From positions 1 to 64,000 of IMG/VR virus record IMGVR_UViG_3300024319_000003: a DNA stretch of 64,000 bases; one strand, 5' to 3'. Positions within the stretch are counted from its first letter, which is position 1. Every line of letters starts with the position of its first letter. The notes below the pieces were generated by a model, which saw nothing but the letters and a program-made list of their open reading frames with translations, searched no databases and had not been told where the DNA came from. The DNA comes from a virus. Position numbers and translations under genes: made by a program. Of the stretch, positions 2,928 through 61,104 are shown one piece after another.

Positions 2928-3236
2928 ATGGCAAAAGAATTAATACCCTTCAATGATAGAGTTATTATAAAACCTATAGAAGAAGATGAACAAATGTACG
3001 GTAATATAGTTGTACCTGATATGGGTAAGAACAAACCGGAAATGGGAGAAGTAATCTCAGTAGGACCAGGTCGTCAATCTGAATTTGGTCAGTTTATTAG
3101 AGTAAATGCAAAAGTAGGAGATACTGTACTTATTCCAAAAATTGGATCTTTAAGAGTAGATTTTGATGGAGAGGAATACTTCATAACACCAGACAAAGAA
3201 ATTTTAGCAATAATTAAAGAATCAAACAATGAGTAA
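2928..3236 (+). CDS. groES: Co-chaperonin GroES
   Basis: PFNDRVIIK, GEVISVGPG, KVGDTVL; adjacent to groEL. Confidence 0.97.
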   Translation: MAKELIPFNDRVIIKPIEEDEQMYGNIVVPDMGKNKPEMGEVISVGPGRQSEFGQFIRVNAKVGDTVLIPKIGSLRVDFDGEEYFITPDKEILAIIKESNNE

Positions 3237-4866
3237 AAAAGTTATATTTTCAGACGAAGCAAGAGGGAAGCTAGCAAAAGGAGTAGATAAATTAGCAAAT
3301 GCTGTAACAGCTACATTAGGACCTTCCGGAAGAAACGTTATTATAGAACAAGATATGGGGAATCCTATATCAACTAAAGACGGAGTAACAGTAGCTAAGT
3401 CAATCGAACTATCAAATAAGGTGCAAAATTTAGGAGCACAAATTGTTAAACAAGCTTCTATTAAGACAGCAGAGCAAGCAGGAGACGGAACAACTACATC
3501 TACACTTCTCGCACAATCTATGCTTTCAGAAGGTATAGACAAACTTAAGAAAGGTCAAAACGCAGTAGACATAAAAAGAGGTATTGATGAAGCAACAAAA
3601 GAAGTTGTACAATATCTAAAAGAGTATTCAAAAGACATAACGGATGAAGAACAGCTAAAGCAAGTAGCTACTATCTCAGCTAACAATGACACCGAAATAG
3701 GTGAGTTAATTTCCACTGCCATGGACAAAGTTGGCCGTGATGGGGTAGTAACAATCGAAGAGTCGCGAACAGGAGAAACATATTTAGAAACTGTTGAAGG
3801 TATTCAATTCAGCAGAGGTTACAAGTCTCCTTACTTCGTCACAGATAATAGCTCAATGCAAGCTGTTCTTCAAGATCCGTTTATACTTCTTACAGATAAG
3901 AAGATTAATAACATAAAAGAACTTCTTCCTATCTTAGAAGCATGTTCATCTCAAAATAAACAGCTGTTAATTATAGCAGATGAAATAGGAGGAGAGGCAC
4001 TTTCTACCTTAGTAGTAAATAAGATGAGAGGTATCTTAGGAGTTGTAGCAGTTCAAGCACCTGATTTTGGAGACAGAAGAAAAGCAATATTAGAAGATAT
4101 TGCAATACTAACTGGAGGAACAGTAGTATCTCATGAAAAAGGAATGAAACTTGATAAGTTTAATACTGACTGGTTAGGGAAAGCTAACAAGGTAACAGTT
4201 AGTAAAGATACTACAACAATTATCGATGCACAAGGAGAAGAAGCTGCAATAACTGATAGAGTAGAGGATATTAAGAGTTTAATTGATAATAGTAATTCTA
4301 ATTTTGAAATTGAAACTTTACAAGAGAGGTTAGCTAAGTTTATCGGCGGTGTATCTATTGTACACGTTGGTGGATTGACAGAAATAGAAATGAAAGAGAA
4401 GAAAGATAGAGTAGATGATGCACTCCACGCTACTAAAGCAGCCTTGGAAGAAGGAATTCTACCAGGTGGAGGTATCGCTCTCTTGAACTCTGCTATGATG
4501 CTTGCTGACCAAATTGGCGCCCAACCAGAAGAGTATCATCTAGGTTACGAAATTGTAATCTCAGCAATCGAAAGACCTTTCTATAAAATACTATTAAATG
4601 CAGGATATACAGACAGCGATATAGGAGGTATAGAAGAACATATTAAAGAAGGAGGAGATGCCTGGTCAGGGTATAATCCTAGAGAAGAACAGTATGTAAA
4701 TATGTTTGCTTCCGGTATTATTGATCCAACTAAAGTTACTAGGTTAGCATTAGAAAATGCAGCATCAGTTGCAGGAACGATGTTAATAACTGAAGCAGTG
4801 ATTAGTAATAAAAAGGATAAAAAACAAGACCCAGCACAGGGTATTGATCCATCAATGATGATGTAA
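3229..4866 (+). CDS. groEL: Chaperonin GroEL
   Basis: TLGPSGRNV, TKDGVTVAK, AGDGTTT, GIIDPTKVTR. Confidence 0.98.
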   Translation: MSKKVIFSDEARGKLAKGVDKLANAVTATLGPSGRNVIIEQDMGNPISTKDGVTVAKSIELSNKVQNLGAQIVKQASIKTAEQAGDGTTTSTLLAQSMLSEGIDKLKKGQNAVDIKRGIDEATKEVVQYLKEYSKDITDEEQLKQVATISANNDTEIGELISTAMDKVGRDGVVTIEESRTGETYLETVEGIQFSRGYKSPYFVTDNSSMQAVLQDPFILLTDKKINNIKELLPILEACSSQNKQLLIIADEIGGEALSTLVVNKMRGILGVVAVQAPDFGDRRKAILEDIAILTGGTVVSHEKGMKLDKFNTDWLGKANKVTVSKDTTTIIDAQGEEAAITDRVEDIKSLIDNSNSNFEIETLQERLAKFIGGVSIVHVGGLTEIEMKEKKDRVDDALHATKAALEEGILPGGGIALLNSAMMLADQIGAQPEEYHLGYEIVISAIERPFYKILLNAGYTDSDIGGIEEHIKEGGDAWSGYNPREEQYVNMFASGIIDPTKVTRLALENAASVAGTMLITEAVISNKKDKKQDPAQGIDPSMMM

Positions 4867-4994
4867 TGAATGACATTATAGTTAGAGAATATACTAATGA
4901 GTATGGATTAAAAGATAAATGGACGTATAAGGGTAATACGTTGATTAGTACAGAAATGACCTACCCAAAAACTAAAATTAAAAAGAAAACTATT

Positions 4995-5165
4995 ATGAGT
5001 AAAAAACAAGAATTATTCGAAGCAATTGAAGCAAACTTTAATGAGTTAGCAGAAAATAATGCAGGTACTACAAAAGCATCTCAACAGAGAGCTAGAAAAG
5101 CAGCAGGTGAAATTAAGAAATTAATCACCGACTATAGAAAAGCTTCTGTAGCAGAGAACAAGTAA
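4995..5165 (+). CDS. Hc1-like (Bacteroidetes histone-H1-like) small DNA-binding protein; ORF track extends it upstream to 4866
   Basis: KASQQRARKAAGEIKKLITDYRKAS resembles the KAAxxRARKxxxExxKxxKEFRKxS pattern of this family. Confidence 0.7.
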   Translation: MSKKQELFEAIEANFNELAENNAGTTKASQQRARKAAGEIKKLITDYRKASVAENK

Positions 5166-5176
5166 GATGAGGAGGC

Positions 5177-5230
5177 GGGGGAGGGGCGTTTCTCTCTCTC
5201 GTCGACGAAGTCGACACGCGCGAATTTAAA
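5177..5230 (+). repeat. GC-rich structured element, copy 1
   Basis: gggggaggggcgtttctctctctc-gtcgac-gaa-gtcgac-acgcgcgaatttaaa; related copies at 40960 and 42369. Confidence 0.85.
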
Positions 5231-5232
5231 AG

Positions 5233-5268
5233 AAGGTCCTTCCGGAAACGGCTAGGGCCTTTTCTTTG
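5233..5268 (+). terminator. Probable intrinsic terminator of the chaperone operon
   Basis: aaggtcct/agggcctt stem capped by ccg-GAAA-cgg and followed by a T-rich run. Confidence 0.6.
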
Positions 5269-5578
5269 TGAATATGTTAAAGGTTACCCCAATGGAGAGG
5301 CCTCCGTAAGTTGTTGCTAATAAATCCCGTTTATCAAAGCGATTGCCTTTCTCTCTGCTATCGGAAAGTTCTTTTAATGTACCAACCAATATAGAAGAAG
5401 CAACGGAGTAAATCAATGCTTTTTTCTTGCTCTTGGTCTTAGCGTAAACTAGAGTATAAGTGCTTGCGGATACTAACGCGCCTGCGGCAAAATGGTACTG
5501 TTTGTCGTATTCTGTTAAGAGCTGCGCGTGAGCCGTGGAAAGAGTTAAGAATAGTAGAAGTGTAGTAAATAGTCTCAA
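5252..5578 (-). CDS. YfiM/VanZ-like small membrane protein
   Basis: Signal peptide ending AHA-Q; DKQYHFAAG, KELSD and DLLAT motifs; TATTTAT motif upstream on the minus strand. Confidence 0.7.
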   Translation of the reverse strand: MRLFTTLLLFLTLSTAHAQLLTEYDKQYHFAAGALVSASTYTLVYAKTKSKKKALIYSVASSILVGTLKELSDSREKGNRFDKRDLLATTYGGLSIGVTFNIFTKKRP

Positions 5579-40959: not shown

Positions 40960-41010
40960 GAAGAGGGGGCGTTTTTCTTCCTCGACGAAGTCGCCACGCG
41001 CGAATTTAAA
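40960..41010 (+). repeat. GC-rich structured element, copy 2
   Basis: gaagagggggcgtttttcttcct-cgac-gaa-gtcg-ccacgcgcgaatttaaa. Confidence 0.85.
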
Positions 41011-41018
41011 TAAGTAAT

Positions 41019-41528
41019 ATGATAGAAGAATTTAAACCCATACTAACTCCTAAAGGAATTCTTAATTGTGGTGCCTTTGGAGGATCATACTTCGGTACAA
41101 AAGACTTAGAAGGTGATTATGATTACCAATCTCTATTTCAAGAGACATTAGCAGAAGTATCTCCGGAAAAGTACTTAGGAGATAAGTATCAAGTGAAGAA
41201 GAATATGTTTAAGATTAAGAGCGGCATGCCTTATGACTATTGGAAAGAGAAGGGTTGGATACATAATGATGATCCATATGGTTGGTTTGAATGGTACTTA
41301 AAATATCACAACGGTAGAAGGCATTCAGATGATGCAAGACAGATTCAACGATGGAGAGAGTTTTGTGGAGTGAATGGTAGATGGCGTAAAAGAATCTATA
41401 ACAGGATAGAAGAGACAGGTGATTGGAAAGTAAGTCCAAGGATACAACAATCATTACTACATTGGGGGTATATGGTCAACGAAGTAGACTATCAAAAACA
41501 TATTAAAGAGATGAATCATGGCATATAA
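41019..41528 (+). CDS. Conserved-looking Trp/Arg-rich hypothetical protein
   Basis: GAFGGSYF, DPYGWFEWY, GRRHSDDARQIQRW, QSLLHWG. Confidence 0.8.
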   Translation: MIEEFKPILTPKGILNCGAFGGSYFGTKDLEGDYDYQSLFQETLAEVSPEKYLGDKYQVKKNMFKIKSGMPYDYWKEKGWIHNDDPYGWFEWYLKYHNGRRHSDDARQIQRWREFCGVNGRWRKRIYNRIEETGDWKVSPRIQQSLLHWGYMVNEVDYQKHIKEMNHGI

Positions 41529-41748
41529 AATGACCAAAGATAAAACAACGTTGAAGTTAATAGAGGAGTTAAATGAATTAGCTACAGTATTACTTCAGAA
41601 CTATAATAAGCCTAAGAAGGAACATACAATAGAGATACAAGATGAAATAGCAGATGTTAAGCTTTGGTTGAACATTGTAGAGAAACGCTATGACAAAGAG
41701 TATATCGATAAAAGAATAAAGGGTAAGATTAAAAAGTATAAGCTATGA
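41518..41748 (+). CDS. MazG-like nucleotide pyrophosphatase domain protein
   Basis: EELNEL...DEIADV. Confidence 0.7.
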   Translation: MAYKMTKDKTTLKLIEELNELATVLLQNYNKPKKEHTIEIQDEIADVKLWLNIVEKRYDKEYIDKRIKGKIKKYKL

Positions 41749-42300
41749 TAAAGGCAATAAAAAGAATATTAAGAGATATGTGGATGGGTATAAAGATAGC
41801 AAATGAGAACTATCTTAATGGTAAGACTAATCAAGGTAAATTCTAAAGATGAGTAACGAAGAACAATATGAAGTTAGCGCAAAAGTAGTATTCATATGCT
41901 GTTCCTTTGTTGGATTAGTTACACTTTTAACACTATTAGCATTAGCAATCAAACCATAACAAAGATGAGTAAAGAATCAATACCGGATTTGATATTAGCT
42001 ATAGTAGTGTTAATGTTATGGAATGGGTACTTAATATATAAAATGCGAAAGAGATGATCAATAGCGGAAGAGAATGGGATTGGTTAGATGATATAATAGA
42101 AGATGGTATAGATGATTATGTCTCAGTACCTACAGGAAGTAAACCGCCTACATGTATAGAAGATTAATATGGAGTTTAAAGTATATGAGTATAAACCTTT
42201 AACAATAGGACTATGGAGACCATTTGTAATAGAGGAAGGCTTTATAAAGGACTATATAAGAAGGACTTCAATAGAGACAGATAATATAATACTATTTTAA
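41745..42300 (+). CDS. Array of five microproteins (41745-41846, 41849-41959, 41965-42057, 42054-42167, 42169-42300)
   Basis: ATG-started ORFs of 30-43 aa separated by 1-5 nt or overlapping as ATGA. Confidence 0.6.
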
Positions 42301-42315
42301 AGTAAAATAAGAGTT

Positions 42316-42513
42316 ATGACAATACAAGAACAATTAAGAGGATGGGGTATGGACGTAGAAGCTTTGAAGGGGGAGGGGGCGTTTCTCTCTCCACCGAAGG
42401 TGCCACGCGCATTTTCGACGAATGTCTCAAATGATCCAACCCAACCCAACAATCTAAAGGAAGAGGAATGGTGTCATTACGGAGGTCTGCCATCACCTAA
42501 AGCATATATGTAA
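42316..42513 (+). CDS. Hypothetical protein carrying element copy 3
   Basis: gttATG leader; C-terminal WCHYGGLPSP. Confidence 0.55.
   Translation: MTIQEQLRGWGMDVEALKGEGAFLSPPKVPRAFSTNVSNDPTQPNNLKEEEWCHYGGLPSPKAYM
42369..42415 (+). repeat. GC-rich structured element, copy 3
   Basis: gggggagggggcgtttctctctc-cacc-gaa-ggtg-ccacgcgcatttt. Confidence 0.8.
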
Positions 42514-42883
42514 GCATGCTAAAGCATGTGTCTGAGAGTGTACGACTTTGATCAATACTACATATCATTAGATATAAGATCAATGGAGAGATACCGTGGT
42601 AGTAAGGTAGATAGAGGGTAAACAACCAAGTGTTAGCCTAAAGCATATCAATTAAGTGTAACGTATATATTAATATATTGATATACATATAGTTTTATAT
42701 TGAGATATATTGTTTGTATAGAATAATACCTATAGGATGTATGGAATGAAAGGAAATTATATCAGGCATGCACCCCTCTCCAATATTTTTTTTTCTATAT
42801 AGAGGAAAATAACCCACCAAACAGTTGTCTATATGCGTAAATTTTCTTATATTAAGGTATATTAATAAAGATAAATAAAGGTT

Positions 42884-43189
42884 ATGACGTATTCAGACAA
42901 AGTTAAGAGTTCAAAAGTAATGTTAGACATCATCAAGTCCATGGAGGATGAAGAGAGTATTAAGTTTACCTACGGCAAAGGTTATAAAGGAGAGCCTGAG
43001 GTATATAAGATCAATTGTTATAAGGATGGTATAGATGGTAAAACGTCTTATAGTATCTGGAATAACTTTAATGGTATGAATGTATCTTCTTTGGGTCCTA
43101 CTACGGTTAAGTGTTATACATTTGATATGATGTCTCAGAGAACTACATATAACTTCCCGTTAAATGAAATGATAATGGTTGAAGGATAG
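42884..43189 (+). CDS. Hypothetical early protein
   Basis: Promoter plus aaaggttATG. Confidence 0.75.
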   Translation: MTYSDKVKSSKVMLDIIKSMEDEESIKFTYGKGYKGEPEVYKINCYKDGIDGKTSYSIWNNFNGMNVSSLGPTTVKCYTFDMMSQRTTYNFPLNEMIMVEG

Positions 43190-55326: not shown

Positions 55327-58300
55327 ATGGCTAAAGTAACATACACTTCACAAGATATTATTGCTAATAGCTTACCTGATGTAGAGAAATACTCAAGTAA
55401 GGATCTTAATTTAATAGACAATTTTAAAGTTAACAAGGAGTTTGACTTTAATAAGCATTATATTGAGACTCACTTCTATACGGTAAATAATTATAGACTG
55501 TACTCTTCGTATAACTACTCACTTCCGGTTCCAAACCTAAGTATACCCACAGAAGATCAAAAATCAACAGAAATAGAATTAAAACCTGCTGAACTAGCCA
55601 TACAGCAAGGATTTGCACGTACTAAAGTAAAGGTACTATTTCACTTTTTAAACGATGTATTCACAATAGGTAACGGTAAGCAAGATTTATACATACACAG
55701 TATATCAACAGACCGTAAAGAAGTTTTACTTTATTCCGATAAGATAAAAGTTAACGAGTTAATTAATAGAACAGACGAACTAAAAGAAAAGATAAAGAGT
55801 AAGAGTTACTTTGAAGAACTTTCCCTTAACATGGGAGATAATGATCTTCTGATAGTAACAAATATAGATACATTCCAACTAGATAACAAATACACAGTTG
55901 CACTTAGACTGTATGAACCATTACCTGATAAATATGATATTAAGAGTGATGTTCAACTAGTAGAAAAAGTATCAGATTCAATAGCTACTTTAGTTATACC
56001 TGATATAGAGGAAGAAGAAAGACAGGCTCCAAAGCTAAGACAAGCAAACTTTTCTGTAGAATTAGAGACTCAAGACAGTACACCTACAGAGTACTTTAAA
56101 TTAAATGATTTATTTAGTTATGAATCTAATAACTCTAATAAAGAATTATTTTCACTCATAAATGAAAAGAGTGCCAACATCGGCATAGACCATAGAGAGT
56201 ATGAAAACTTTATTCACTTTTCTTCTGCTGAAGAAAGACTTAGAAACTTTAAATATAAAGTAAGTCTACTAGAAGCATATGAGAGTGACCTACTTACAGA
56301 ACAAGGAATTAACAATCCTAACACAGTAGCAGCAAGCGGAAGTATAGTAGCAACAAGGAACCTAATAGATGGTATAGTAAATAATTTTGATCACTATGAA
56401 AGGTTCCTATACTATGAAAGTGGATCTAAGTCGTGGCCTAAGTCTAATGATGATAAACCTTATGTAAATTTAGAGATAAGTAATACAGCATCGGTAGCGT
56501 GGTTTGACGAACAGATAACATCTGCATCTTCTTATGATGCAAGAAATCTAGATGTATTGACCGGATTTCTACCAGAATATATAGCAGACGATGATAATAA
56601 TAAAGCAGCTATTACATTTACTCATATGCTCGGTCAGCATTACGATAACTTATGGATATACACTAAAGCTCTAACAGATAAGTACGATACAGATAACAGG
56701 TTAGATTACGGTATATCTAAAGACTTAGTACAGGAGGCAGTAAAGAGTATGGGAATAAAACTGTATAATTCTGTTGAAGGCACAAACGACTTATTCAGTT
56801 ACATTATACAGGATACATACGATAGCGGTAGTCAAAGCGAAGTAATAAATCACTACGCAGGTCCTTTTACTGAAGCAGAATTTGCAAGTGGCTTTATAAG
56901 ATTTAGAAGTGATTCAAATACTGCAGATAGTAATATGACAATTACTTTAACTTCTGTACAAGGAACAACAATTACATACCAAGCTACTAACGATGTATCA
57001 AAAACATCTACTATAGATGCAGCAACAGGTAATACATTATTTTATATAGGAAATGCAGGTGTTTACACTGGAGCAGTTGCAAGAGAGTATCGATTTAATA
57101 ATGCTATAAAAAGTAGTAATGGACACGGTGGAGAATTTACTTATGAATCAACATCTATAGCTGGAGAGATAGTAATAAAACAAACAATAGCAGGACCGCA
57201 AGGAAATATAGCATGGATAACAGGTTCTAGCTTTTATGGAGCAGGTCAACTATCCGGAGGAATGTCAACTGCATTTACAGGTGGCACCACTTCTACCGGC
57301 AAATCTATATCTACAAAAGATTATGAAGCAAGTGTATATAAAAGACTCTACCACAACATACCACTTTTACTTAAATCAAAAGGTACAGAACGGGGACTAA
57401 GAGCACTTATAAACTGCTTTGGTATACCTAAAGACTTTTTAACAATTAAAACATTCGGGCAGCATGAAGACTCGATATATTTTGGACCGGAAAATGCCTA
57501 TACATCTTCTTTAAACAGCGTAACAGTAATACCATCCATCCCAGAAGATGGAAAAGTACTAACTGGTAATAGATCAATAACATTAGAAAATCCACAAGGA
57601 AATAGACAATCTACTAACATATATAAGTCAAGAAAAGTAGAAGTAGGGTTTTCACCTTCAACAGTGTTAAATAAGTACATTAATGAACAAGCAGACTTAA
57701 TAAGAGCAAACTACACACAAGCACAGTTTAGTCTAGATCATTGGATTGGAGATCCTAGAGATCTTAATAAAGATGTTTATGAATCACCTGATTATAAGTT
57801 TAAGTATACGCTAGAGAGACTGAAGTACAATATTTTTCCGGATTTAGGAAAAGAGTATTTAAATTACAATCTAAAAGATTTTGTACGTATTTTTAAATTC
57901 TACGATAACGTACTCTTTAAAATGATTAAAGATTTTGTACCCTCTAATGCAAATTTAGATGTAGGTATTATCATACAGCCACATAGTTTAGAACGATCCA
58001 AAATTAAATCACCCTCAGTCGAAGGAACTGATAATACTTACTCAGCAAGTATAGATACAGCTTTTGTAACAGGTTCTTCAGCAGGAGCGTACAATGATAA
58101 GGTATTACCGGAAAATAAACACCTAAAAGGGCTACCTGTTAATTTCAGCCCAGGTAAGGTAGGGGGACATTCAGATATTAATTTTCATATAAATTTTGCT
58201 ACTGGATCAGCAGACTTTGGTGAAATAGTCCCACAGGGTACAGTATTTTACCATCCAGATGGAACTGAGTACAATATAGAAGAAGTATATAAACCAGGTA

Positions 58301-61104
58301 ATGTAATAGGAGTAGATCCAGTTATAAAAGATAAGTTTGTAGGCACACCCTACGAAATACACCCTACAGGTTCTATTGCAAGTCTACATCAAGACTTCTA
58401 CATAATGTTTAGTTCTGAATCAATAGACAATAGGTTCCCAGGGAATACTTCATTTGATGCCGATATACACCACCCGAATTTAGTATGTATAGCTTACAAC
58501 CTACAGAACTCAAGTAGCAGATGGTCTGCTAGATTTAATGACAGTAGCGATTACCACTCTTTTGATCCACTACCGAACGATGTAATTCTATCAGCATTTG
58601 AACAATCAGGTTCTATAGGTGTTAAGAAAGAAATACATAAATTTTACACCCCGTTAAACGGTTTTATTATTGAAGAACCTACAGCAGCATTTGTAGACAT
58701 TACATTTAAATACTCTGACTACTCTCCTACACAGGCTACAACTAGTTTAATTCTTACATCTAATGTACTACCTCTTTTAACAAAACACTACGTAGTACGA
58801 CGCTCAGGAACACCTGGGGATATTTACAGTAGTCAAGTTGGAGTAATAATACCATACAGTAGTTCAGCAGCAACAAAAGCATTAGCATTTAAAGAAGCTA
58901 TAGATAGCCCTAATGGACAGAAGTTTAGATTTAACTTAGATATAGTAACTAAATTTGAAGAAGGAGATACGTTAAGAATATCACAAAAACAGCTAGGAAC
59001 ATCAGGAAACATAGCCTCTAACCCTTCTACACTTAACTCGGTTATGCCGACCTACATGTTAAATAGTAATTCATATCCAATACCTAACTGGAGTGGAGGA
59101 AAGAATAAGTCAAGAACTAATATAAGACATAATGCTACTACGTTCTATAACGAGGAAGTGAAGACTATAAGTGGTTCTGTTACAAAAAACATAGCAGATG
59201 AATCTCCGAAGTATAATGGAGAGCTATCAGGCTCTACTATTACTATAACAGACGGAGAATTAAATGTTAATAACCCATTTAAATACTTATCTCACCCAGT
59301 AACAAAATTTAATATAACCCCAGTAGAGCAAAGTAGTGCTGATGTATTAGAATCACTATTCATAATGGACAGCAGTAATCCTACGGAGTATAACACTAAT
59401 ATTGCTGCGTGTGGTGCTTTTACATTAATATCAGATGCATATCAATTCTACCATGATGGGACTACATCTCCACCTTTAGCAAACGGAAGTGATAAAGTTT
59501 ATTTAGATATCAACGGTGCTACAGTTTTTGCAGGAAATGGAACAGGAGATTTCTATAGTACAGCAATACAAACAGGTAATACAGTTGAAAAATTTGCAAT
59601 GGAGATAGAGACAGATGGAACTATCCTTAGTATAACGAACTGTGGTACACTAGACAGTACCGCTCCTCTTGCTCCTTCATCAGCATGGTATAATTCTTCG
59701 ATAACATCTAATAACGTTTCTGCCGTTCCCTTCAGAGCATATAACTGTGAAGTAGGTACTACAATGATAGTAACTGCATCAGATGAAAGTAGTAATGAAG
59801 CTTATTCTAGCCTTGGCGTTGTTAATACATCCGTTTTTGGAAGTATAAACTGTTCTACCTTATCAGATGGAGACGATATCACACTAAGTGTTAAACTAAG
59901 AGACGCAGTAGGTAATGTATCACCAGAATCAACAGTACACACAGCAGCACACCACCATGGGAAAGTGATTCCTAAACAAGTAGCAGTTCCTTCAGGGTAC
60001 TCAGGATACTTTGCAGTTAAAGAAAGCGCTATGTTACTTCTAACACAGTCTATAAACTACACTGCTGCATACAAAGTACAAGTGCATCACTCTGTAGACT
60101 TTAACGGTACAGTCTCAGTAATTTTTGACGGAAACCACACTGGAGCAACTCAACGAACAGCAACCTCAACATATATAAGTGCTTCATCAGCAACTCCAGG
60201 AACATCAAGTGTCTTTATAAACGACTTTGCAAGTCAAGATTTCTCAAGCCCTACTTACGGTAATACTGTCTATGGATATGTATACCTTACTGACACCTTC
60301 GGTAACGTAGGAGCATACCACACAGCATCTGTAACACATAAACCAGAATATGATTATGATTGGGAAAACGCAACTGGCGCAGGAACCCCACCAACTTATA
60401 TTAATCTAACCGGTTACGCACAAACAGGTTCAACCTATGTAAGAGCAAAACAGAACGGAGGATACGTAGGAAATACTGACTACGAAATGCAATCGCTGTC
60501 ACCTGGTAACTTTCTTCAAGCATATAACCCATACTATTCGTATTTGGGAAATAGAACTTACGGTAAAGGAAATAGTAATGTTTTCACAGCTATCGTTACA
60601 GAAAATTCTGGAACTAACACACGATATGGAGCCTACAGGAAAAAAATTGTTAAAGACGGATACACTTACATAATGGGTCCTAGCCAAGGCTGGTCACAGG
60701 ATGAACTCTGTGTTAGTATGGACACCAATATTCTAATGAAAACCGGTAAACAAAAACTAGCTGAAGAATTACAGGTCGGAGATATTATTAGAACTCAACA
60801 TGAAGATACATTAGAATGGTTTGAAGATATAATTATACGTAAGGAAATCTCATCAGCAGAAAAAGAAACATTAGAAATTGAATTTGAAGATGGGACAGTA
60901 CTTATAGCCACTCCAGGACATAGGGTATATATAGAAGAAGAAAATAAATTTATTGCCTTAAGGGATATAAAAGTAGAACAAAAAGCATCAGGAAAGATAA
61001 TAAGAAGTATAAAAGAAGGGGCGAAACAAAAGGTAGTAAGCCTAACAGTAGAAAAATGTCGTACATATATAAGTAACGGTATACTATCTCATAATACAAA
61101 GTAA
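55327..61104 (+). CDS. Large baseplate/tail protein with C-terminal Hint domain
   Basis: LLKSKGTERGLRALINCFG (baseplate wedge/tail-I-like); ends CVSMDT...ATPGH...NGILSHN-TK. Confidence 0.85.
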   Translation: MAKVTYTSQDIIANSLPDVEKYSSKDLNLIDNFKVNKEFDFNKHYIETHFYTVNNYRLYSSYNYSLPVPNLSIPTEDQKSTEIELKPAELAIQQGFARTKVKVLFHFLNDVFTIGNGKQDLYIHSISTDRKEVLLYSDKIKVNELINRTDELKEKIKSKSYFEELSLNMGDNDLLIVTNIDTFQLDNKYTVALRLYEPLPDKYDIKSDVQLVEKVSDSIATLVIPDIEEEERQAPKLRQANFSVELETQDSTPTEYFKLNDLFSYESNNSNKELFSLINEKSANIGIDHREYENFIHFSSAEERLRNFKYKVSLLEAYESDLLTEQGINNPNTVAASGSIVATRNLIDGIVNNFDHYERFLYYESGSKSWPKSNDDKPYVNLEISNTASVAWFDEQITSASSYDARNLDVLTGFLPEYIADDDNNKAAITFTHMLGQHYDNLWIYTKALTDKYDTDNRLDYGISKDLVQEAVKSMGIKLYNSVEGTNDLFSYIIQDTYDSGSQSEVINHYAGPFTEAEFASGFIRFRSDSNTADSNMTITLTSVQGTTITYQATNDVSKTSTIDAATGNTLFYIGNAGVYTGAVAREYRFNNAIKSSNGHGGEFTYESTSIAGEIVIKQTIAGPQGNIAWITGSSFYGAGQLSGGMSTAFTGGTTSTGKSISTKDYEASVYKRLYHNIPLLLKSKGTERGLRALINCFGIPKDFLTIKTFGQHEDSIYFGPENAYTSSLNSVTVIPSIPEDGKVLTGNRSITLENPQGNRQSTNIYKSRKVEVGFSPSTVLNKYINEQADLIRANYTQAQFSLDHWIGDPRDLNKDVYESPDYKFKYTLERLKYNIFPDLGKEYLNYNLKDFVRIFKFYDNVLFKMIKDFVPSNANLDVGIIIQPHSLERSKIKSPSVEGTDNTYSASIDTAFVTGSSAGAYNDKVLPENKHLKGLPVNFSPGKVGGHSDINFHINFATGSADFGEIVPQGTVFYHPDGTEYNIEEVYKPGNVIGVDPVIKDKFVGTPYEIHPTGSIASLHQDFYIMFSSESIDNRFPGNTSFDADIHHPNLVCIAYNLQNSSSRWSARFNDSSDYHSFDPLPNDVILSAFEQSGSIGVKKEIHKFYTPLNGFIIEEPTAAFVDITFKYSDYSPTQATTSLILTSNVLPLLTKHYVVRRSGTPGDIYSSQVGVIIPYSSSAATKALAFKEAIDSPNGQKFRFNLDIVTKFEEGDTLRISQKQLGTSGNIASNPSTLNSVMPTYMLNSNSYPIPNWSGGKNKSRTNIRHNATTFYNEEVKTISGSVTKNIADESPKYNGELSGSTITITDGELNVNNPFKYLSHPVTKFNITPVEQSSADVLESLFIMDSSNPTEYNTNIAACGAFTLISDAYQFYHDGTTSPPLANGSDKVYLDINGATVFAGNGTGDFYSTAIQTGNTVEKFAMEIETDGTILSITNCGTLDSTAPLAPSSAWYNSSITSNNVSAVPFRAYNCEVGTTMIVTASDESSNEAYSSLGVVNTSVFGSINCSTLSDGDDITLSVKLRDAVGNVSPESTVHTAAHHHGKVIPKQVAVPSGYSGYFAVKESAMLLLTQSINYTAAYKVQVHHSVDFNGTVSVIFDGNHTGATQRTATSTYISASSATPGTSSVFINDFASQDFSSPTYGNTVYGYVYLTDTFGNVGAYHTASVTHKPEYDYDWENATGAGTPPTYINLTGYAQTGSTYVRAKQNGGYVGNTDYEMQSLSPGNFLQAYNPYYSYLGNRTYGKGNSNVFTAIVTENSGTNTRYGAYRKKIVKDGYTYIMGPSQGWSQDELCVSMDTNILMKTGKQKLAEELQVGDIIRTQHEDTLEWFEDIIIRKEISSAEKETLEIEFEDGTVLIATPGHRVYIEEENKFIALRDIKVEQKASGKIIRSIKEGAKQKVVSLTVEKCRTYISNGILSHNTK
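60709..61095 (+). other. Hint (intein-like) autoprocessing domain, 129 aa, no endonuclease
   Basis: Block A C-VSMDT, EELQVGD, block B TPGH, terminal HN followed by Thr. Confidence 0.85.

Follow-up and report, generated by a model that had tools for sequence, protein, structure and literature searches.

What is the function of a GC-rich element of about 50 bases that recurs in an AT-rich viral genome, and is it selected as nucleic acid? The element lies in the first 64,000 nucleotides of IMG/VR record IMGVR_UViG_3300024319_000003 (this whole stretch, as analysed, is the window), and it forms a GC-rich island within a genome of 34% GC. Three copies occur, all on the + strand, and there are no others in the 167,696-bp genome. 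A first-pass annotation had placed them at 5177-5230, 40960-41010 and 42369-42415, where they are indeed present, with cores at 5177-5221, 40960-41001 and 42369-42410 and scores of 65-74 bits (E-values 1e-18 to 1e-21) under a covariance model built from relatives. The layout described for them (purine run, GGGGCGTTT, CT run, hairpin and (C)CACGCGC) was recovered in all three copies. On the + strand of the whole genome, the nonamer GGGGCGTTT and the heptamer CACGCGC are each restricted to these three sites. A 14-nt degenerate pattern alone is mildly unusual (3 matches vs 0.42 expected), whereas the full element is far beyond chance. The similarity among the copies ends at the element, for which reason a diversity-generating (DGR) or template-repeat arrangement was rejected. 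The parts of the three copies are as follows.

5177..5221, + strand: core of copy 1 (type A), covariance model 67.7 bits, E 6e-20
5177-5186, + strand: G-run of copy 1
5187-5188, + strand: CG of copy 1
5189-5200, + strand: T-run and CT repeat of copy 1
5201-5215, + strand: hairpin of copy 1, 6-bp stem, GAA loop at 5207-5209
5215-5221, + strand: CACGCGC of copy 1
40960..41001, + strand: core of copy 2 (type B), covariance model 64.9 bits
40983-40993, + strand: hairpin of copy 2, 4-bp stem
40995-41001, + strand: CACGCGC of copy 2
42369..42410, + strand: core of copy 3 (type C), covariance model 73.5 bits
42392-42402, + strand: hairpin of copy 3, 4-bp stem
42404-42410, + strand: CACGCGC of copy 3

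The anatomy of the element and its covariation were derived from an alignment of 75 distinct copies, which is the total recovered with the covariance model from related phages. The near-invariant parts are a G-run (at least three, usually five), CG, a short T-run, an alternating CT repeat and GCCACGCGC, the last followed by [G/C]A(A/T)TT and an A/T-rich tail in which W-U-U is kept in all classes; about 25 positions are invariant. Most copies carry a hairpin of 3-6 bp with a C-G-closed GAA loop between the CT repeat and GCCACGCGC. The proposal of a C-GAA-G hairpin whose stem varies around a constant loop was confirmed in the three copies, which have stems of 6, 4 and 4 bp, all paired, with GAA invariant, and across the 75 copies two variable stem pairs covary strongly (GC27/AT23/CG8/TA3 and CG29/AT33). 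An all-against-all pair scan of the same 75 copies gave no covarying pair outside the hairpin. Two further pairings proposed at first pass did not survive the larger alignment. The supposed covariation of the purine and pyrimidine runs vanished in a comparison of cognate with non-cognate arm energies (p=0.53), and nothing of it was seen in the all-pairs scan, while a pseudoknot or switch between GCGT and ACGC has no covariation in its favour, its pairs being invariant or broken but never compensated and several variants losing GCG yet keeping CACGCG. Pairing of the G-run with the CT-run is nonetheless energetically plausible and is formed by RNAfold, as generic G:C/G.U pairing only, with about half of the pairs G.U; since it needs G.U, it fits a sense RNA.

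At least six copies, some of them groEL-linked, are without any hairpin and otherwise intact, and in one copy a 3-bp hairpin of another kind, with TTT as its loop, takes its place, so that the length of the hairpin insert between the fixed motifs ranges from 0 to about 20 nt. The copies without a hairpin indicate that the core of the element is the invariant flanking sequence and that the hairpin is an optional insert. The variable length of the insert in turn suggests reading of the motifs in single-stranded form (RNA or ssDNA), rather than as two half-sites on B-form DNA. Behind the C-GAA-G hairpin come CCACGCGC and then an A/U-mixed tail, and because no U-tract follows the hairpin the element itself is not an ordinary intrinsic terminator.

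The element is real and conserved, a cis-element not described before that belongs to a clade of Flavobacterium-type myophages. Related complete phage genomes of 160-177 kb carry 1-3 copies each; the sole cultured carrier, Flavobacterium phage vB_FspM_immuto, grown as vB_FspM_immuto_2-6A on Flavobacterium sp. LMO8, has one intact copy, which is unannotated. An exact-pattern scan of IMG/VR yielded some 50 different genuine copies, each of them in a viral contig of low GC (31-44%), the matches in GC-rich contigs being due to chance. A groEL-anchored set of 80 viral loci was split by GroEL identity: where GroEL is at least 62% identical (about 42 loci) the element was present in 37, located 170-1400 nt downstream of groEL and oriented as groEL in 37 of 37, whereas where GroEL is 55-58% identical (about 38 loci) it was present in none. 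Nor was it found in five complete genomes of the sister clade. Among carriers GroEL is 62-97% identical and the copies occupy orthologous sites. Nearly all genes of these genomes lie on one strand, so the co-orientation of the element with transcription is weak evidence.

A host origin, or mimicry of a host sequence, was rejected, as the matches in 401 Flavobacteriaceae genomes equalled those of a reversed-pattern control; a 22-mer recurring among these matches lies on a conserved coding stretch, and two MAGs gave weak model matches to sequences unlike the element. Similarly, the pattern scan of bacterial genome contigs returned chance matches only, mostly from GC-rich genomes, among the matches listed. 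In Rfam 15 the element had no family match at gathering or permissive thresholds, two tRNAs were the only matches over the window, 41700-42950 gave nothing at E<=10, and five related loci gave nothing on the element at E<=1. The first-pass reading as an undescribed cis-signal selected as nucleic acid is thus upheld by further copies with compensatory changes in many related phages, together with the lack of an Rfam match, and the covariance-model scan of the full genome and its relatives that had been proposed as a check found further copies in which the covariation of the hairpin is kept.

The three copies occupy different contexts. Type A copies are found behind groEL and one small gene, which here is that of a histone H1-like protein (Hc1), with 0-25 nt between the stop codon and the G-run.

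3229-4866: groEL, upstream of the Hc1 gene
4866..5165, + strand: Hc1 (histone H1-like) gene, from Pfam PF07432 (E 7e-7) and synteny
5228..5267, + strand: interrupted GC hairpin with A-tract and U-rich tail, from RNAfold

Lying between the Hc1-like gene and a lipoprotein gene convergent with it, the folded stretch at 5228..5267 is probably an intrinsic terminator that works in both directions; a simple terminator scan misses it because the stem is interrupted. In relatives, canonical versions of a terminator occur at this site. The lipoprotein gene (minus strand, 5252-5578, PHROG 26616) has the terminator region in common with the convergent Hc1 gene, and the latter lies downstream of groES/groEL. 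Read-through of the stop codon of the Hc1 gene was considered and rejected, as the frames of the extension peptide differ between this genome and immuto.

In type B copies the element is followed by an A/T-rich spacer of 16-21 nt and then by the ATG of whichever gene comes next, in most cases gene X; for copy 2 the A/T-rich spacer up to the ATG of gene X is 17 nt.

41019..41528, + strand: gene X, 169 aa, a conserved phage protein encoded behind type B copies

Gene X has over 200 relatives (56-87% identical) and falls into unnamed viral clusters only in the protein atlas. Searches with it gave no Pfam or PHROG match and no PDB sequence match, and its AlphaFold model is confident (pLDDT 88) but without a fold match (Foldseek E>1, VIA Z<3); an HUH-transposase fold was not matched either. 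The gene X of immuto, like that of one other genome, has a EEWCHYGGLPSP tail (EEWCHYGG) at its end. Here gene X is without this tail, which instead ends the small ORF carrying copy 3. A close relative (locus L068) is without a block of ~1 kb (41019-42055) comprising gene X and three small genes, and the block boundary in this comparison lies directly behind copy 2, an alignment that suggests possible cassette exchange at the element. In other relatives, different N-terminal ORFs are fused to the element. The 1-kb indel, the switch of the tail and the ORF fusions together indicate that gene content changes exactly at the element. As a separate observation, 41518-41748 holds a 76-aa ORF that is like the C-terminal part of MazG-type NTP pyrophosphohydrolases (PHROG 2245, E 1e-5).

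The copies had been described as intergenic or in different reading frames. This is right in part: copy 1 is indeed intergenic, copy 2 falls within the last part of a doubtful ORF of 51 aa, and copy 3 is in frame within a conserved small ORF.

42316..42513, + strand: conserved 65-aa ORF with copy 3 in frame
42410..42433, + strand: second hairpin (P3) of type C copies, both stems covarying among relatives
42426..42455, + strand: C-rich, G-poor 30-nt tract, C minus G of 11 (genome 99th percentile 10)
42514..42880, + strand: conserved non-coding region of about 370 bp, behind type C copies in all relatives

At its two ends (N-terminal GW.FD..AL, C-terminal EEWCHY[GS]GL, EEWCHYGGLPSPKAYM) the small ORF bears marks of protein coding at the codon level, among them a switch of serine between TCC and AGC. 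The frame is open through the element in 11 of the 11 relatives inspected, which led to rejection of an intron or bypass reading of copy 3, and there is no conservation of the peptide that the element encodes. P3 begins at the last C of CACGCGC and consists of an outer stem of 5 bp, for which four fully complementary versions occur among relatives, and an inner stem of 3 bp, which changes from G-C to A-T at synonymous codon positions. Taken together, the hairpins of copy 3 show compensatory changes at synonymous and non-synonymous codon positions with the frame kept. The 65-aa ORF is, in addition, an early ORF.

The non-coding region at 42514-42880 contains a covarying hairpin right behind the stop codon, several conserved blocks, a pyrimidine tract, AT-rich phased TATAT repeats and an early-type promoter motif with a AAAGGTTATG start. 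RNAalifold predicts no consensus fold for this region, which accordingly looks like a DNA-level control region. It is possibly an origin, and might act either jointly with the element or independently of it.

Across the 75 copies the neighbouring signals recur. A canonical terminator stem lies 10-14 nt past CACGCG in at least 21 copies, the ATG of the next gene follows 16-21 nt downstream in 11, and at least 10 are inside the small ORF that carries copy 3 here. Behind 12 of the 75 copies there is a 30-nt tract in which the excess of C over G reaches or exceeds the genomic 99th percentile, vs 0.75 expected (18 of 75 at or above the 95th percentile), and the 12 copies with this extreme tract are exactly those without a terminator or ATG. 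Copies start from -1 to +17 nt past a stop codon in several unrelated contexts, and in relatives the gene behind the terminator often has a promoter motif of its own.

This context (past stop codons; before terminators, C-rich tracts and start codons) favours a transcript-level signal over priming, packaging or DNA entry. Of the earlier suggestion, a cis-signal for priming, packaging, DNA entry or processing or else a small structured RNA, the conserved cis-signal stands. The preferred reading, tentatively drawn from sequence and context and with a rough probability of 0.35, is of an RNA module at the ends of cistrons, recognised by a factor, through which termination, read-through or the fate of 3' ends would be controlled. 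Reading would take place on a single strand, most probably the RNA of the sense transcript, where a cistron or operon ends. Its recognition surface would be made up of the linear motifs (the G-run with CG, the U-run, the CU repeat, GCCACGCGC and the A/U-rich tail), to be read by a clade-specific trans-acting factor or by RNA polymerase itself, with the C-GAA-G hairpin as an optional insert among the motifs that may be structurally neutral or stabilising. The module would set the outcome at a termination signal 10-30 nt further on. In type A copies that signal would be an intrinsic terminator, and in type C and several other copies a Rho-type tract, rich in C and poor in G. Either termination would be strengthened or read-through would be allowed under regulation, and the 3'-end fate of the upstream mRNA would be set with it. 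We infer that RNA (not ssDNA) is the active form and that a trans-factor exists; the effect on termination could go in either direction.

The presence of the element in a clade with clade-specific proteins (Hc1 and gene X) counts weakly for the RNA module. Hc1 was present in 5 of 5 element-positive genomes vs 0 of 5 element-negative ones, and gene X in 4 of 5 vs 0 of 5, a co-occurrence that amounts to one single clade contrast; Hc1 and the gene X product, gp75 and gp117 in immuto, are accordingly weak leads as partner proteins. Several points count against the RNA module. The C-GAA-G triloop is exceptionally stable in DNA rather than in RNA (PMC13037366). The gene behind copy 1 is convergent, so read-through there would be antisense, and ribosomes on the ORF of copy 3 would unfold an RNA structure and block the loading of Rho. 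The promoter motifs of the downstream genes mean that antitermination is not obviously needed, and the close spacing to terminators could reflect genome compaction alone.

The architecture of the element, with a stop codon, a pyrimidine-rich motif, a hairpin and a C-rich tract, resembles that of lambda nutR/tR1 and rrn boxA. As in lambda nut (boxA and boxB)/tR1 and rrn boxA, a pyrimidine-rich linear motif is joined to a hairpin with a covarying stem and a fixed loop, two or three co-oriented copies occur per genome, and they lie past a stop codon just before a terminator or C-rich tract. However, there is no sequence similarity to these sites, the loop is a GAA triloop where that of lambda nut is a GNRA-like pentaloop, and, unlike lambda nut, many copies stand 10-14 nt before an intrinsic terminator with a downstream gene that has its own promoter. 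The boxB hairpin of lambda is essential and is bound by an arginine-rich protein of the N type; no N homologue was recognisable by sequence, and the dispensability of the hairpin of the element, which is also dispensable in rrn sites, argues against a strict boxB role. The put RNAs of HK022 may offer a further analogy, being cis-acting, about 60-70 nt long, composed of adjacent hairpins and present in few copies per genome, and acting on polymerase. However, the stems of put are indispensable and are found immediately downstream of early promoters, whereas the element has one supported helix, which is optional, and lies at operon ends.

A rival explanation that is unlikely, though next in probability to the RNA module, is an mRNA 3'-end stabiliser or processing site, similar to REP/BIME or to T7 RNase III and RNase E sites. 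Here the GC fold would block 3'-5' exonucleases, or an endonuclease would cut the A/U-rich tail 3' of GCCACGCGC, so that the half-life of the cistron on either side, upstream and downstream, would be set. A GC-rich island placed directly behind a stop codon, in the gap between two cistrons or in a 3' UTR, the stable hairpin or hairpins predicted, and a location at rearrangement junctions, as for REP-type elements, all agree with this, as does the W-U-U tail found behind the element in all classes, which resembles the preference of RNase E. An exonuclease barrier, however, needs structure and not about 25 invariant bases, and the sole covarying helix is dispensable. The recurrent C-rich tract is left unexplained, and a cut upstream of the terminator would strip the transcript of its own protective hairpin. 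REP/BIME and the PeSL cassettes of T4 are, like the element, short conserved structured repeats past stop codons or between cistrons, and they influence mRNA fate or mark exchange points of phage modules. Nevertheless, REP sequences come in hundreds of copies with RAYT partner genes as against 1-3 syntenic copies of the element, and PeSL cassettes are units of a promoter and a stem-loop whereas the element has no promoter. More clearly improbable is the view that the element has no function of its own and is a recombination scar or a GC cluster, selfish or neutral, like the GC clusters of yeast mitochondria or the palindromic elements of Rickettsia (which can sit in frame in genes). Such an origin would explain a GC-rich island in an AT-rich genome, the one copy in frame in an ORF with a non-conserved encoded peptide, and the location at mosaic junctions, but hardly the restriction to 1-3 copies per genome at orthologous sites in phages with GroEL 62-97% identical, the compensatory substitutions that keep the hairpins in each lineage or the about 25 invariant positions; moreover, no transposase-like partner gene was seen, and gene X is without an HUH-transposase fold match. 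The small size, the many invariant nucleotides, the optional peripheral hairpin and the same core preceding either a terminator or a start codon could recall a small ribozyme, or a ligand-sensing riboswitch aptamer with varied expression platforms (terminator, start codon). This is very improbable: Rfam families are unmatched even at permissive thresholds, covariation supports the optional hairpin only, most copies are at the 3' ends of cistrons where the next gene has its own promoter motif, and one copy is within a translated ORF.

A signal acting at the DNA level on the + strand, as ssDNA or an extruded hairpin, would instead be a priming or ssi site, part of an origin, a nick site or a site of recombination or cassette exchange, and is also rather unlikely. 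C-GNA-G mini-hairpins are unusually stable in DNA and are found in the G4 origin, RSF1010 ssiA and N4 early promoters (PMC13037366, PMC4496689), and the hairpin of the element is of this DNA-stable type. The hairpin is, however, dispensable in at least six copies, and the pairing of the G-run with the CT-run would need G.T, which is weak in DNA. The 1-3 copies per genome are strand-specific, the phage encodes a DnaG-type primase, copy 3 adjoins the conserved AT-rich non-coding region with its repeats, and gene content switches exactly at the element (the ~1-kb indel and the gene X tail), all of which would suit a DNA-level role. The element is also tolerated within an ORF, as is lambda ori, which lies inside one. 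Against this, the positions closely track gene boundaries, terminators and start codons, and GC skew has no origin signature at the copies. The nick consensus of T5, R/GCGCRGG on one strand (PMC3517423), has its GCGC within the invariant motif, but the match is limited to this GCGC core, the next bases being GAA, ATT, GGA or AAA. G4-type origins and RSF1010 ssiA have, like the element, a strand-specific CCGAAGG-type mini-hairpin beside conserved single-stranded sequence, but act on ssDNA replicons or a plasmid oriV with a dedicated primase, whereas the element belongs to a dsDNA T4-like phage and lies at gene ends. The vRNAP promoters of N4 share with the element three copies per genome, a stem (4-7 bp) with conserved flanks, and a C-G-closed 3-nt purine loop (GGA or GAA) (PMC4496689, PMC13037366). 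The loop and closing pair of the element fit the N4 hairpin, for which a stem of 5-7 bp is the criterion, whereas the stems of the element are 3-6 bp and at least six copies are hairpin-less. Unlike N4 promoters, the element stands behind genes and not before early genes at the genome end, and its flanking motifs are unrelated; with a stop codon on one side and a terminator on the other for type A copies, and an ORF around type C copies, the position is not that of an N4 promoter, from which transcription starts a fixed distance downstream. An N4-type polymerase, the giant T7-like enzyme packaged in the virion, was not found. PF00940 had no match in the phage, although control genomes gave none either, and Pfam shows no polymerase domain in the three longest ORFs (2262, 2236 and 1925 aa). 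Consequently, of the first-pass comparison with N4 promoters and ssDNA origins the loop type still fits, while the comparison as a whole is weakened by the absence of the hairpin in at least six copies and by the failure to detect a T7/N4-type RNA polymerase. In the last 130 residues of the 1925-aa ORF (55327-61101) there are weak matches of the Hint/intein-like kind, which at E about 5e-4 stay below the Pfam cut-offs.

The element is of interest as the ways in which transcription is divided into units and ended, and in which the fate of mRNA is decided, are almost wholly uncharted in the large virulent phages that infect Flavobacteriia and other Bacteroidota, and the promoters, translation initiation and Rho of Bacteroidota hosts are all unusual. 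In its boldest form, which we regard as unlikely though conceivable, the element would be the RNA or non-template-strand site of a new factor-dependent termination/antitermination system of T4-like Bacteroidota phages that gates temporal gene modules, with the adjacent basic Hc1-like protein or the gene X product as a possible factor, or else a ssDNA start signal that marks the replication origin by the AT-rich region. The element is sharply defined, and its covariance model recovers it from dozens of uncultured genomes, besides the cultured immuto; it could lead to the regulatory factor reading it and could mark operon ends for annotation in the clade. Copy 3 also provides an example of nucleic-acid structure kept by compensatory change within a protein-coding frame.

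In three of the six short metagenome contigs that were fetched whole (L040, L058 and L068) a copy lies within about 105 nt of the contig end, suggesting that assemblies tend to break at the element, either through population variation in the flanking genes or at physical DNA ends.
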